Shown in pieces: positions 2,093 through 5,288 of a stretch of DNA of 24,000 nucleotides. Made by a program: the position numbers and the translations under genes. The stretch is from Alphaproteobacteria bacterium (GTDB lineage: Bacteria; Bacteroidota; Bacteroidia; Bacteroidales; FEN-979): assembly GCA_009928665.1 (NCBI GenBank), contig SACF01000039.1:1-24000 (forward strand), given 5' to 3'. How positions within the stretch are numbered: the stretch's first letter is position 1; each line of letters begins with the position of its first letter. The notes under the pieces are model-generated. The model was not told where the DNA came from. It saw only the letters and a program-made list of their open reading frames with translations, and made no database searches.

Positions 2093-2902
2093 CTATTTGC
2101 CCGCCCGCGCCAGTTTCAGAATGCGAACAGCGCCCCGGATCACGATGCCGAATACCATCAGCCCGATTACCAGGTCGGGGATCTTCGAACCCGTCAGCCA
2201 GACCAGAACACCGGCGCCGATCACACCGGCATTCACGATCACATCATTCGAGGTAAAAATCATGCTTGCCTGCATGTGCGATTCCCGGCTCCTGCTTTTC
2301 TGCAGCAACAACAAACAAAGTACATTCCCTGCAAGAGCAAGCGCCGAAATGAGGATCATGGTCTGAAAGGAGGGTACCGGCCCGGCGCTGATAAACCGGC
2401 GTATCACCTCCATAAAACCTGCAACCGCAAGGGTCATCTGAAAATAGCCGCTGATCCGGGCCACGCTGTTTTTCCGGGCCAGCGTGCCTCCCACAGCATG
2501 CAGGGCAAGCCCGTAAACAAGGGCGTCGGCAAGCATATCCAGACTGTCGGCAACCAGTCCCATCGAATGGGCCAGCAAACCGGTCAATACCTCAAGCACG
2601 AAAAAGAAGAGGTTGATTGCAAGCACCTGCCACAACAGCCTGCGCTGCAGCCCGGAACCCTCCTCCGTGTCAAACCCATCAGCCTGAACGCTCCCTTCAA
2701 AACGGGTGTCGAAATCCAGGCTGTTAAGGCGTTCCAGGATCACCGCGTGGTCGCCCGCGTGATAAACGGTCAGCGTCCTGCGGGGAATATCAAATTCGAG
2801 GGATTGAATGGCGGTCAGATCCTGCAGCTTCATGCGGATTATCTGCTCTTCCGAAGGACAATCCATCTTATGAATAAAAAATTTCGATTTTTTCATGGTC
2901 AT
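2093..2902 (-). CDS. Cation diffusion facilitator (CDF)-type metal efflux protein with an N-terminal HMA-like metal-binding domain
   Basis: The N-terminus FIHKMDCPSEEQIIRMKL is the CxxE variant of the heavy-metal-associated fold. It is followed by the CDF membrane core (LLWQVLAINLFFFVLEVLTGLLAHSMGLVADSLDMLADALVYG). At 269 aa there is no room for the usual C-terminal cytoplasmic CDF domain. It is divergent from the ArsR gene. Confidence 0.75.
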   Translation of the reverse strand: MTMKKSKFFIHKMDCPSEEQIIRMKLQDLTAIQSLEFDIPRRTLTVYHAGDHAVILERLNSLDFDTRFEGSVQADGFDTEEGSGLQRRLLWQVLAINLFFFVLEVLTGLLAHSMGLVADSLDMLADALVYGLALHAVGGTLARKNSVARISGYFQMTLAVAGFMEVIRRFISAGPVPSFQTMILISALALAGNVLCLLLLQKSRSRESHMQASMIFTSNDVIVNAGVIGAGVLVWLTGSKIPDLVIGLMVFGIVIRGAVRILKLARAGK

Positions 2903-2911
2903 TGAAAAATC

Positions 2912-2929
2912 TATCGTATATTTGCGATA
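2912..2929 (+). promoter_or_regulatory. Candidate promoter -7 box with flanking inverted repeat (possible ArsR operator) in the 37 bp divergent gap
   Basis: TATATTTG at 2917..2924 matches the Bacteroidota TAnnTTTG -7 motif and ends 15 nt before the arsR-like ATG (2940). It is bracketed by TATCG (2912..2916) and CGATA (2925..2929). Confidence 0.35.
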
Positions 2930-2939
2930 AACAATTAAT

Positions 2940-3272
2940 ATGGCCTACAAAAGTACAAATTATAACGAGGATGAGGTGCGGCTTGCCCGGTTTGCAAAGG
3001 CTATGGGGCATCCTGCGCGGATTGCCATCCTGAAATTGCTCACCTCGATGGATACCTGTTTCTGCGGTGATATCGTGGAGGAGCTGCCCATTGCCCAGGC
3101 TACGGTATCGCAGCACCTGAAAGAACTTAAAGATTCCGGGTTGATCCACGGGTCGGTTGAACCGCCTAAAATCAGGTACTGTATCGATCCCGAAAACTGG
3201 CAAAGGGCACGGGAGCTGTTCCACGACTTCTGGGAGTATCCCGGTTTTTCACCATCAATAGATAAAAAATGA
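2940..3272 (+). CDS. ArsR/SmtB-family metalloregulatory transcriptional repressor
   Basis: 110 aa. It has the winged-HTH pattern [19 protein letters not shown]...[20 protein letters not shown] CxC metal-thiolate motif sits in the alpha-3 position ([12 protein letters not shown]; Cys40/Cys42, nt 3057..3065). The gene ends 57 bp upstream of hgcA on the same strand, with no visible terminator between them. Confidence 0.85.
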
Positions 3273-3329
3273 TACGGCCTATAGTCCCTGGTTCGCTGCC
3301 CTAAACGAAAAACACGTAACCGCTTAAAA

Positions 3330-4370
3330 ATGACCAATTCTGACTACATTACCGGAACCTACACCTTGGGCGACCTGGAAATCCCGCGGGTTGATACCCG
3401 TTGGAGCGCAACCGACCTTTGGGGAACTTTGAAGGTTCGCTGGTCGTTCGGCCGGATGGATTACAAAGTGAAACCGGGTCTCTATGCCGTGGGATCACCC
3501 GACCGCCAATCGCTGGTCTTTGTATCGGCCAACTACAAACTGAGTTTCGATCACCTGCGCCGGGCGCTGGAGGGCATGAACGCCTGGATTCTCGTCATCA
3601 ATACCCGGGGGATCAACGTGTGGTGCGCGGCAGGCAAAGGGATCTTCAGCACCAAAGAAGTCGTCCGCCGGATCCGGATTGACCACCTCGACCAGGTCGT
3701 CGATCACCGCAGGCTGATCCTGCCGCAGTTGAGCGCAACCGGCGTTGCTGCCCACCAGGTTCAAAAGATGACCGGCTTTTCAGTCATATTCGGTCCGGTC
3801 AAAGCCGCCGATATCAAAGCATTCGTCGAATCCGGCCTGAAAGCAACGGAACCGATGCGAACGGTGACCTTTCCGCTGAAGGAGCGGCTGAAGGTGATCC
3901 CCGTCGACATTTTTTACGGAACCCATTATCTGATCCTTATCCCGGCGCTTTTCTTCTTCCTTTCCGGATTATCCTCCGGTGGATATTCCTTCGACCGGAC
4001 GCTTCAGCACGGATGGAATCCTGTGGTCAACCTCTTCGCCGGCTACCTGACCGGCTGTGTCGTGACCCCGGCCCTGCTGCCATGGATACCCTTCCGCAGG
4101 TTTTCGTTAAAAGGTCTCCTGATGGGATTTCTTACAGCCACACTGCTTCTCATTACCGGATCCTTCGGAACAAACCCGCTGGAGATCCTTGCCTGGTTTC
4201 TGATGACCGCCGGCCTCTCTTCGTTCATGGCGATGAATTTTACCGGATCGTCGACCTTTACCTCTATTTCGGGTGTTCAGAAGGAGATGAAAGTGGCGCT
4301 TCCCGTTCAGATCGCCCTGGTCGCAGTGGGACTGGCCCTTTGGATTGCCTCACTTTTTATAACTTTGTAA
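3330..4370 (+). CDS. hgcA: HgcA, corrinoid-binding membrane protein of the mercury methylation system
   Basis: 346 aa. It carries the diagnostic cap-helix motif GINVWCAAGKG (Cys99, nt 3624..3626), embedded in the conserved LYAVGSP...VFVSANYKLSFDHLRRAL...RRLILPQLSATGVAAHQV corrinoid domain. About five predicted TM helices follow in the C-terminal half. hgcB starts 1 nt after the stop. Confidence 0.9.
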   Translation: MTNSDYITGTYTLGDLEIPRVDTRWSATDLWGTLKVRWSFGRMDYKVKPGLYAVGSPDRQSLVFVSANYKLSFDHLRRALEGMNAWILVINTRGINVWCAAGKGIFSTKEVVRRIRIDHLDQVVDHRRLILPQLSATGVAAHQVQKMTGFSVIFGPVKAADIKAFVESGLKATEPMRTVTFPLKERLKVIPVDIFYGTHYLILIPALFFFLSGLSSGGYSFDRTLQHGWNPVVNLFAGYLTGCVVTPALLPWIPFRRFSLKGLLMGFLTATLLLITGSFGTNPLEILAWFLMTAGLSSFMAMNFTGSSTFTSISGVQKEMKVALPVQIALVAVGLALWIASLFITL

Positions 4371-4371
4371 C

Positions 4372-4668
4372 ATGAATGGATTTGTTTATCTCCCCGATGT
4401 AGTGACCCTGGAGCTGGATGCCGCAAAATGCAACGGTTGCCGGATGTGTACCCGGGTCTGCCCGCACGCCGTTTTCGAAATCAGAGACCGCAAGGCTTTC
4501 ATCCGGAACCGTGATCACTGCATGGAATGCGGAGCCTGCGCGCTGAACTGTGTCACGGGCGCCATCACCGTCAGGTCGGGCGTGGGTTGTGCAGCCGGAA
4601 TCCTCAACGGGTTGATCCGGGGCACCGAACCCACCTGTGACTGCAGCAGCAGCGGGAGTTGTTGCTGA
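4372..4668 (+). CDS. hgcB: HgcB, 2x[4Fe-4S] ferredoxin partner of HgcA
   Basis: 98 aa. It has two CxxCxxCxxxCP-type clusters (CNGCRMCTRVCP and CMECGACALNC, including the HgcB-typical C(M/I)ECGA motif at nt 4519..4539). It also has the conserved internal Cys in GVGCAAG and a C-terminal vicinal Cys pair (GSCC*, nt 4660..4665). It is tightly coupled to hgcA (TAA-c-ATG). Confidence 0.9.
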   Translation: MNGFVYLPDVVTLELDAAKCNGCRMCTRVCPHAVFEIRDRKAFIRNRDHCMECGACALNCVTGAITVRSGVGCAAGILNGLIRGTEPTCDCSSSGSCC

Positions 4669-4694
4669 ATCCTTTGTTAACCTTTAACTTCAGA

Positions 4695-5288
4695 ATGATC
4701 ATGAAAAATTCCATTGGTCCGAAACCCCTCTTGTTAACCAATCCCGTGCTGATCGTCGGTTCCTATGATCCGTCGGGAAAGCCGAACGCGATGAATGCCG
4801 CCTGGGGCGGAATTGCCAACTCCAATCCCCCTTGTGTCTCGGTTTCGCTGAGAAAAGCTACTTACACCCACGGCAATATTATGAATCGCAAGGCTTTCAC
4901 CATCAGCATCCCTTCTGAAAAATATGTCAAAGAGGCCGATTATTTCGGGATGAAATCAGGAAAGGATACGGATAAATTTGAGAGCGCCCGGCTCACGCCC
5001 GTCCGAAGCGAAAAGGTGGATGCCCCATACGTCGGAGAATTTCCGGTGGTTCTTGAGTGTACCCTCTTACATTACCTGGAACTCGGGTCGCATACCCATT
5101 TTATCGGTGAAATTGTGGATATCAAAGTCGACGAAGAATGCATCAACGAAGCCGGGTTGCCCGATATCACAAAAGTGTTACCGTTTTGTTTCGACCTTTC
5201 GAGCCGTTCTTACTATGGTATCGGGAAGAAGCTGGATAAAGCCTTTGACCCTTCCGTCCTGCAGACTTTCGCAACAGGAGCCCGCTAA
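4695..5288 (+). CDS. Flavin reductase-like (FMN-binding split-barrel) domain protein
   Basis: The pattern PVLIVGSYDPSGKPNAMNAAWGG...CVSVSLRKATYTHGNI...FTISIP...GSHTHFIGEIVD is typical of Flavin_Reduct-domain proteins of ~190 aa. ATG 4695 (or 4701) is preferred over the track start 4659, which overlaps the hgcB stop. The gap after hgcB is 26 bp with no hairpin. Confidence 0.75.
   Translation: MIMKNSIGPKPLLLTNPVLIVGSYDPSGKPNAMNAAWGGIANSNPPCVSVSLRKATYTHGNIMNRKAFTISIPSEKYVKEADYFGMKSGKDTDKFESARLTPVRSEKVDAPYVGEFPVVLECTLLHYLELGSHTHFIGEIVDIKVDEECINEAGLPDITKVLPFCFDLSSRSYYGIGKKLDKAFDPSVLQTFATGAR

Follow-up and report, generated by a model that had tools for sequence, protein, structure and literature searches.

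Introduction

The native role and the regulation of hgcAB, the gene pair of mercury methylation, remain open questions. In this study, we examined an hgcAB locus that lies behind a gene for an ArsR/SmtB-type repressor (arsR), at positions 2093 to 5288 of a 24,000-nucleotide stretch of contig SACF01000039.1 (positions 1 to 24,000, forward strand; assembly GCA_009928665.1), which is referred to below as the window. Two described systems come closest to it. In Pseudodesulfovibrio mercurii ND132, the gene of ArsR2 is co-transcribed with hgcAB, and ArsR2 represses it in an arsenic-responsive manner (Gionfriddo et al. 2023, bioRxiv 10.1101/2022.10.17.512643; Goni-Urriza et al. 2020). The ND132 study places the cysteines of ArsR2 at residues 47, 49, 86 and 88, describes no operator, and lists Bacteroidetes metagenome-assembled genomes (MAGs) and Paludibacter jiangxiensis as having arsR beside hgcAB (10.1101/2022.10.17.512643). 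In Arsenicibacter rosenii SM-1, a member of the Bacteroidota, ArArsR is the As(III)- and methylarsenite (MAs(III))-responsive autorepressor of the arsRMC operon (Zhang et al., mLife 2025, PMC11868830). Its DNase I footprint is TTTTATCGTAATATTGCGATCACAATC; Cys41, Cys80 and Cys82 are needed for the response to As(III) and only Cys41 and Cys82 for that to MAs(III), and the paper makes no mention of hgcAB (PMC11868830). Neither of these papers connects the footprinted operator type to hgcAB. Bacteroidota loci in which arsR and other ars genes precede hgcAB have also been published (McDaniel et al. 2020, PMC7438021; Peterson et al. 2025, PMC11984097).

A preliminary description of the window proposed that a single metal-sensing regulator controls both hgcAB and a divergent HMA-CDF efflux gene. 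The present analysis leads to a different emphasis. The locus is best read as a module from an arsenic operon, consisting of an ArArsR-type arsR and its operator, that has been fused to hgcA, hgcB and a flavin reductase gene to give a four-gene operon (2940-5288) predicted to be derepressed by arsenicals. We put the probability of this reading at about 0.72.

Results

The locus and its lineage

The window comes from a Bacteroidales MAG lineage. Its HgcA is 99% identical to the NCBI entry 'HgcA [Bacteroidales bacterium]', and the gene order AraC, LigB, CDF (divergent), ArsR, HgcA, HgcB, flavin reductase and CrtI-like (convergent) recurs in seven other assemblies (loci L001 and L163-L168), whose HgcA proteins are 95-99% identical to that of the window and which serve as the lineage set below. 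All eight genes of this array are under purifying selection, with ratios of nonsynonymous to synonymous substitution rates (dN/dS) from ~0 to 0.37. The features of the locus are as follows.

2093..2902, minus strand: transporter gene, HMA-like domain and CDF membrane domain (PF01545, AlphaFold2 model, Foldseek)
2903..2939, no strand: divergent control region of 37 bp, common to the transporter gene and arsR (near-invariant in the lineage)
2911..2930, no strand: putative ArsR operator, 6-8-6 inverted repeat cTATCG-N8-CGATAa (palindrome, homolog loci, match to the ArArsR footprint)
2917..2924, plus strand: putative Bacteroidota-type -7 box TATATTTG of arsR, identical with the operator spacer (fit to TAnnTTTG)
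2940..3272, plus strand: arsR, 110 aa, predicted ArArsR-type ArsR/SmtB repressor with Cys40, Cys42 and Cys81 (NF033788, PF01022)
2948..2955, minus strand: speculative -7-like box TACTTTTG for the transporter gene (sequence reading only)
3273..3329, plus strand: arsR-hgcA spacer, 57 bp, non-coding (variable, unstructured)
3330..4370, plus strand: hgcA, corrinoid protein, with the motif NVWCAAGK at nt 3615-3638 (NF040863, PF03599)
4372..4668, plus strand: hgcB, 2x[4Fe-4S] ferredoxin (NF040864)
4701..5288, plus strand: flavin-reductase-like gene, alternative start 4695, probably the last gene of the operon (PF01613)
5306..5330, plus strand: hairpin and T-run, likely operon end (hairpin scan, folding against shuffles)

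The five open reading frames of the preliminary description stand at these positions and on these strands, and their family assignments hold by profile scores. Its spacings are also confirmed: 37 bp from the CDF gene to arsR, 57 bp from arsR to hgcA and 1 nt from hgcA to hgcB, while the 26 bp given between hgcB and the flavin reductase gene is either 26 or 32 bp, according to whether the ATG at 4695 or that at 4701 is chosen.

On NF040863 (cut-off 275), HgcA reaches 435 bits in a match that spans profile positions 1-324 of 325, and it also matches PF03599. The cap-helix motif, sought as N(V/I)WCA(A/G)GK with its Cys ligand, occurs as NVWCAAGK at residues 96-103 and is invariant in an alignment of 24 sequences. 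HgcB scores 121 bits on NF040864 (cut-off 99), and its translation contains two CX2CX2CX3C motifs (C20/23/26/30 and C50/53/56/60), Cys73 and a C-terminal Cys pair, C97-C98. By these profiles and motifs, the two genes are assigned as the hgcA and hgcB of mercury methylation.

The regulator is of an arsenic-operon type

The presence of an ArsR/SmtB repressor with the motif TCFCGD on the same strand upstream of hgcA, noted in the preliminary description, is borne out both by the motif, which provides Cys40 and Cys42, and by profile scores of 60.2 bits on NF033788 (cut-off 55) and 44 bits on PF01022 (cut-off 22). The third cysteine, Cys81, lies in IRYC. In our alignment the Cys40 column holds Cys in nearly all hgcAB-linked ArsRs, and the Cys81 column does so in every sequence. 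ArArsR was compared through its published residue numbers and spacing, its sequence itself not being part of the alignment. On that basis the 41 residues between Cys40 and Cys81 equal the spacing between Cys41 and Cys82 of ArArsR, and the window ArsR has equivalents of Cys41, Cys43 and Cys82. Unlike ArArsR, it has no equivalent of Cys80, where Arg79 stands, nor of Cys107/108. The two proteins also agree in coming from the same phylum and in being encoded by the first gene of an autoregulated operon (predicted for the window); ArArsR regulates arsM and arsC, whereas the window module is predicted to regulate hgcAB and the flavin reductase gene.

In ND132, as in the window, an ArsR/SmtB gene lies on the same strand directly upstream of hgcAB, and its product combines a CxC in the alpha3 region with a beta-wing Cys at a spacing of 41 residues. 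ArsR2 has four cysteines, whereas the window ArsR has three (40, 42 and 81), and an Arg takes the place of the first beta-wing Cys. The window also differs from ND132 in its Bacteroidota promoter architecture, and ND132 has no reported divergent CDF gene or downstream flavin reductase gene. As a separate observation, C47, C49, C86 and C88 of ArsR2 are spaced as C41, C43, C80 and C82 of ArArsR. The hgcAB regulator of ND132 may itself belong to the ArArsR type, a link that neither paper makes.

The closest homologs of the window ArsR are 72-82% identical to it, and the CxC motif is present in 116 of the top 120 matches. Five close homologs (76-82% identity) were examined, and all of them head ars operons that contain neither hgcAB nor the transporter. 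These operons take the forms arsR-rhodanese-arsM-acr3-arsC, arsR-acr3-arsC and arsR-thioredoxin-DsbD-(rhodanese)-arsM-acr3-DUF5714-arsC. The closest homologs that stand with arsM, acr3 and arsC share Arg79 with the window protein, and the operator/-7 box core ATCGTATATTTGCGATAAAC is identical in the four of their loci whose DNA could be read (76-80% identity). The Bacteroidota ars operons L169-L173 (arsR-trx-DsbD-rhodanese-arsM-acr3-DUF5714-arsC) thus resemble the window in their TCFC and RYC motifs and in the operator/-7 core, and differ from it in holding arsenic detoxification genes and no hgcAB. Their divergent upstream neighbours are unrelated genes at distances of 86-354 bp, compared with 37 bp in the window. 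Judged by these sequence features, the window regulator is of the ArArsR-like, arsenic-operon type and not a Zn/Cd efflux regulator. Its response to methylarsenite is predicted by analogy with ArArsR. A response to arsenite is plausible if Cys42 can act as the third ligand, given that the same variant controls acr3 and arsC elsewhere.

A putative operator over the arsR promoter

The control region contains the palindrome cTATCG-TATATTTG-CGATAa at 2911-2930, 9 nt 5' of the arsR ATG. Its core, TATCGTATATTTGCGATA at 2912-2929, has the form TATCG-N8-CGAT expected of an operator upstream of its own arsR, and it is the only exact match to this operator in the window. Two further matches with one mismatch lie within chance expectation, and we therefore do not count them as additional operator copies or a regulon. 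The ArArsR footprint TTTTATCGTAATATTGCGATCACAATC corresponds to CTATCGTATATTTGCGATAAACAAT of the window, so that both belong to the same operator type.

The -7 promoter element of the Bacteroidetes has the consensus TAnnTTTG. Among 36 arsR upstream regions, 22 contain a 6-8-6 inverted repeat whose arms have CG at their inner ends, where 0.14 would be expected from shuffled sequence and about 2% of background tiles contain one, and in 15 of the 36 the 8-nt spacer fits TAnnTTT(G/A), which none of the shuffles does. The operator arms covary across lineages (ATGTCG/CGACAT, TGTTCG/CGAACA, TATTCG/CGAATA, GTTTCG/CGAAAT and TTATCG/CGATAA). They differ and yet stay complementary, which is the pattern expected of a dimeric repressor site that co-evolves with its protein.

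Within the lineage, the 37-bp control region has a single variable site among five compared sequences, in a neighbourhood of genes with synonymous divergence (dS) of 0.06-0.22. The arsR-hgcA spacer shows free substitutions and, in L163, a 32-bp insertion. The 37-bp region thus behaves as a putative control element and the spacer as an apparently unconstrained one inside an operon.

Other arrangements were seen upstream of arsR in related loci. Tandem pairs of ArsR-type palindromes, ~30 nt apart and ~120 nt upstream of arsR, occur in L005, L008, L019, L024 and L035; the window has a single palindrome. At the usual place of the palindrome, directly 5' of arsR, L006 (55-145) has tandem repeats of the heptamer tgaaatc and L004 (~9200-9287) of the heptamer aaatcgt.

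Extent of the predicted transcription unit

Terminators at the internal junctions were considered and rejected, since the hairpins found there are no better than those of shuffled sequence (z = -0.6, +1.45 and -0.9). The arsR-hgcA spacer (z = +1.45) shows neither a -7 box nor any other sign of a promoter or terminator, in line with the earlier statement that no hairpin or T-tract separates the two genes. Downstream of the flavin reductase gene, between it and the convergent CrtI-like gene, the hairpin with T-run at 5306-5330 folds with z = -1.8, and 8 of 200 shuffles fold as well.

In the window, arsR and hgcA happen to share one reading frame, separated by TGA (3270) and TAG (3279). We considered whether the spacer might encode the N-terminal Cys-Sec (CU) extension of HgcA (Haft and Gwadz) and rejected this on account of the in-frame TAG, the lack of a Cys-TGA and the failure of relatives to keep the frame.

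Neighbourhood surveys from both sides

For the survey from the side of hgcA, one genome per GTDB species was scanned with an alignment of Bacteroidota HgcA, giving 588 relatives, and the best 80 of these loci were annotated by phmmer with the window proteins as queries. Of the 80, 32 have an arsR 5' of hgcA on the same strand, namely 29 of 37 Bacteroidota-titled loci and three of Desulfobacterota type. In most Bacteroidota loci arsR stands 0.5-5 kb 5' of hgcA, with arsenic genes in between: thioredoxin-type ArsC, an ArsC-ArsM fusion, ArsP permeases, Acr3, ArsE-/ArsF-family proteins, rhodanese and DsbD-like proteins. Like the window, the arsR-(ars genes)-hgcAB loci L003-L057 are same-strand arrays that begin with arsR under a promoter overlapped by a palindrome and end with hgcA-hgcB; unlike it, most still have ars genes that separate arsR from hgcA. 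The window and L020, L027, L033 and L045 show the minimal form, in which arsR abuts hgcA.

A strong homolog of the transporter was found near hgcA in none of the 80 loci, the nearest case being a weak CDF match of 27 bits in L005, 4.4 kb from hgcA; a same-strand flavin reductase homolog downstream of hgcB was likewise found in none of the 80. The survey from the side of the transporter covered the best 80 metagenome loci of its family (57-68% identity) and detected hgcA near the transporter-family gene in 0 of 80 and a divergent arsR in 0 of 80; only L143 has an arsR homolog close to the CDF gene, on the same strand. The commonest neighbour of the family is a TonB-dependent receptor upstream on the same strand (23 of 75 loci; e.g. 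L095:2829-4997; set L083-L162), and Fur, CzcD, DUF302 and a MerF-like protein also recur.

A conserved linkage between CDF and hgcAB is ruled out by these two surveys of 80 loci each, and because both gave 0 of 80, the juxtaposition of CDF, arsR and hgcAB is private to the lineage of the window. We also rejected the idea that the ArsR belongs to the transporter and that hgcAB hitch-hiked, since the nearest relatives of this ArsR stand at the head of ars operons and, among the transporter-family loci, L143 alone has an arsR neighbour, on the same strand. The preliminary description had itself called for a survey of this kind and made its proposal depend on conservation of the neighbourhood in related hgcA-positive genomes. 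Such conservation exists for arsR and is absent for the CDF and flavin reductase genes. What survives of the proposal of one regulator for hgcAB and the efflux gene, as a general feature, is the arsR-hgcAB unit. Its statement that an arsR-hgcAB association was already reported for ND132 agrees with the literature, as does its impression that a divergent CDF/HMA gene beside hgcAB is undescribed; we found no paper that links hgcAB to a CDF or to a flavin reductase.

The surveys provided several other observations. The ArsR encoded upstream of hgcA in L077 (9185-~9900) is extended at its C-terminus by ~130 aa that resemble a GNAT acetyltransferase domain. Directly 5' of hgcA, 16 Bacteroidota loci (L005-L019, L029 and others; e.g. 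L018:9267-9968) encode a 233-aa, Cys-containing protein with multiple transmembrane (TM) helices, which has no Pfam match at E <= 0.001 and is weakly DsbD/TsoB-like. A Cys-rich protein of ~97 aa often precedes it, and a DsbD_2 protein of similar length occurs in the ars operons of L172 and L173.

The divergent transporter and the flavin reductase

The transporter has 269 aa from the annotated ATG at 2902; because of the alignment of homologs, its true start is likely to be Met3, at 2896. It scores 55 bits on PF01545 (Cation_efflux; cut-off 26.6), and falls under the cut-offs of the HMA Pfam family (21.1 bits; cut-off 24.8) and of TIGR01297 (70 bits; cut-off 82.35). A sequence search of the PDB gave only a marginal match to ZnT10, so that a comparison of folds was needed. 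The AlphaFold2 model (mean predicted local distance difference test score, pLDDT, 76) has a beta-alpha-beta-beta-alpha-beta arrangement at residues 2-72 and six helices at 78-265. Foldseek matched the membrane part to ZnT1/3/7/8 and YiiP (TMq 0.5-0.6, E = 1e-6 to 1e-4) and the N-terminus to the HMA domains of CCS and HIPP proteins at root-mean-square deviations of 1.1-1.7 A. According to the model, the N-terminal domain has an HMA fold. Its loop reads KMDCPSEE, with a single Cys that is invariant in the family, instead of GMxCxxC.

The protein shares with YiiP, ZitB, CzcD and the ZnT1/3/7/8 CDFs a six-TM fold. Its TM2 DxxxD (D121 and D125) aligns with the transport site of ZnT10. It departs from canonical CDFs in several ways. 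No PF16916 match to the C-terminal cytoplasmic (ZT_dimer) domain was found and the protein ends at TM6, whereas a canonical CDF in L112 has this domain. In TM5, an alignment made by eye (F215...D219) apparently places Phe at the His of HxxxD, with T216, S217, N218 and D219 as family invariants. Together with the one-Cys HMA-like domain and the TIGR01297 score, these traits mean that the preliminary designation as an HMA-CDF efflux gene is supported as to the CDF membrane fold and the HMA-like fold, while HMA stays below threshold by profile, CxxC is lacking, and 'efflux' is an assumption. The family is large (7953 matches, ~265 aa, Bacteroidota) and includes aerobes such as Flavobacterium terrae. 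One would not expect a presumed efflux protein to stand next to TonB-dependent receptors, an adjacency that hints at a part in the uptake or homeostasis of metals.

On PF01613 the flavin reductase reaches 116 bits, and its gene is present in all seven lineage assemblies. Decay of either gene is argued against by dN/dS values in the lineage of 0.15-0.29 for the transporter and about 0.2 for the flavin reductase. Both are functional genes that neighbour hgcAB only in this lineage.

Flanking genes and window composition

Just beyond the transporter gene, and kept with it in the lineage, lie a LigB gene similar to 4,5-DOPA-extradiol-dioxygenase (1161-2078; 303 bits on NF007914) and a gene for an AraC-family regulator (206-1036); both appear unrelated to metals. 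Compared with L164, which is 96.5% identical, the window has ~285 bp fewer inside the DUF6064 gene (128 aa vs 226 aa; site 7253-7263), ~470 bp extra around the DUF6544 gene (8514-8984), ~320 bp extra near 10.1-10.4 kb (10056-10378) and ~480 bp fewer in the NHL-repeat gene (278 aa vs 384 aa; ~11830). The focal locus is collinear between the two despite these flanking indels. A genomic island of foreign composition was rejected, as the guanine-plus-cytosine content is 0.46-0.59 throughout without a break at the locus, and so was a riboswitch or other RNA element, as Rfam gave nothing above the gathering score in the whole window.

Discussion

A same-strand arsR upstream of hgcA in 32 of 80 loci, an operator lying over the promoter, and a spacer that is unconstrained and free of signals together make arsR-hgcAB appear to be one regulated unit. 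In the mechanism that we propose, a dimer of ArsR would bind the palindrome at 2911-2930. As the 8-nt spacer of this operator would be the -7 box itself, the bound repressor would block RNA polymerase and repress its own operon. A trivalent arsenical, As(III) and/or methylarsenite, would bind to Cys40 and Cys81, and possibly to Cys42, and release the repressor, whereupon a transcript of arsR, hgcA, hgcB and the flavin reductase gene would be made that ends at the hairpin and T-run at 5306-5330. ArsR binding, the identity of the effector and co-transcription are inferred here from the features described above.

Several observations weigh against this reading. At the -33 element, the arsR promoter departs from a clean TTTG. 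A weak terminator-like hairpin, no better than shuffles, lies within the 3' end of arsR (3230-3254), and a separate promoter for the flavin reductase gene could lie in the gap of 26-32 bp. Arg79 stands in the place of Cys80, and as the C80S mutant of ArArsR has lost its response to As(III) (PMC11868830), the effector could be methylarsenite only, or something else.

The nature of the signal is also at issue in the reading that Hg(II) or another soft metal (Cd, Zn or Pb), instead of an arsenical, is what ArsR senses, which would make hgcAB mercury-responsive. By the general chemistry of ArsR/SmtB proteins, Hg(II) or Cd(II) could be bound by a thiolate CxC together with Cys81. The best relatives in the PDB and NCBIfam include CmtR (Cd/Pb), weakly at 32-36 bits, and the ND132 study leaves room for other metals (10.1101/2022.10.17.512643). 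However, arsM, acr3 and arsC are the genes controlled by the closest homologs, which agree with the window ArsR in operator core and Cys pattern, and ArsR2 of ND132 responds to arsenic (10.1101/2022.10.17.512643). We regard soft-metal sensing as the least probable of the readings considered. That the regulator belongs to the arsenic type also counts against the proposal of deliberate co-control, in which a single metal-sensing ArsR would govern hgcAB together with the divergent efflux transporter from a common bidirectional control region, as parts of one metal-handling pathway, since CDF-type transporters are generally known as a family to move divalent cations. The intergenic region of 37 bp is near-invariant in the lineage, the operator, with a footprint of ~27 nt assumed by analogy, comes within 6-12 nt of the transporter start codon, the transporter is under purifying selection, and the arrangement is stable in seven assemblies, all of which would suit such a design. 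Against it stand the negative results of both surveys, the TonB-dependent receptor as the usual neighbour of the transporter family, and the different divergent neighbours, at 86-354 bp, of the closest ArsR homologs. Moreover, the transporter appears to lack the canonical TM5 His and does lack the CxxC and the C-terminal domain, and efflux itself is unproven. Deliberate co-control is thus unlikely.

A stronger competitor, which is quite possible but falls somewhat short of an even chance, is that the neighbourhood arose through a neutral accident of rearrangement or deletion, with the transporter expressed independently, e.g. from the TACTTTTG box, and the flavin reductase unrelated to HgcAB. 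Neither neighbour is conserved outside the lineage, the locus flanks differ by several indels between close relatives, and a -7-like box does exist on the minus strand at 2948-2955. This box, within codons 3-6 of arsR and 45 nt 5' of the ATG at 2902, is the only -7-like box on the transporter strand there; it is invariant in the lineage, which could merely reflect the conserved YKST codons, and may be a by-product of coding. Against an accident, transcripts from this box would run into a repressor bound 6-12 nt 5' of the start codon, the arsR-hgcA spacer is far less conserved than the control region, and no terminator lies in the 26-32 bp between hgcB and the flavin reductase gene.

In the reading preferred here, the expected ArsR footprint, ~2908-2934 (~27 nt by analogy), ends 6 nt from the annotated ATG of the transporter and 12 nt from Met3, and the transporter transcript would therefore begin in or behind DNA bound by ArsR. 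Because the footprint is expected to end ~6 nt from the start codon, ArsR probably also interferes with transcription of the transporter gene, through local geometry and not through conserved design.

A more far-reaching variant of the arsenical-operon reading is that the ars genes of an arsenical sensor were replaced by hgcAB and a flavoredoxin-like reductase, with the single operator also gating the divergent HMA/CDF-type transporter. We consider this improbable, if slightly less so than soft-metal sensing. If it were true and all three outputs answered to the same signal, HgcAB would be a module for handling metalloids or organometals with its own electron donor and membrane transporter, and for want of a Cys80 equivalent the trigger could be methylarsenite and not arsenite.

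In summary, the locus is an arsR-hgcAB operon with two lineage-specific neighbours and no new kind of system. The link between arsR and hgcAB is real and has already been published for ND132 and Bacteroidota MAGs. As the regulator is of the arsenic-operon type, the locus reinforces the arsenic link proposed before and does not reveal a new link to metal efflux. The CDF and flavin reductase neighbours should not serve as general clues to the function of HgcAB. What the locus adds is a sharper form of the arsenic link: in its subtype, Cys pattern and operator core, the window regulator is indistinguishable from ordinary Bacteroidota repressors of arsM, acr3 and arsC. This leads to the prediction that in many Bacteroidota methylators hgcAB would be repressed at an operator of the TATCG-N8-CGAT type lying over the -7 box, from which trivalent arsenicals would release it.

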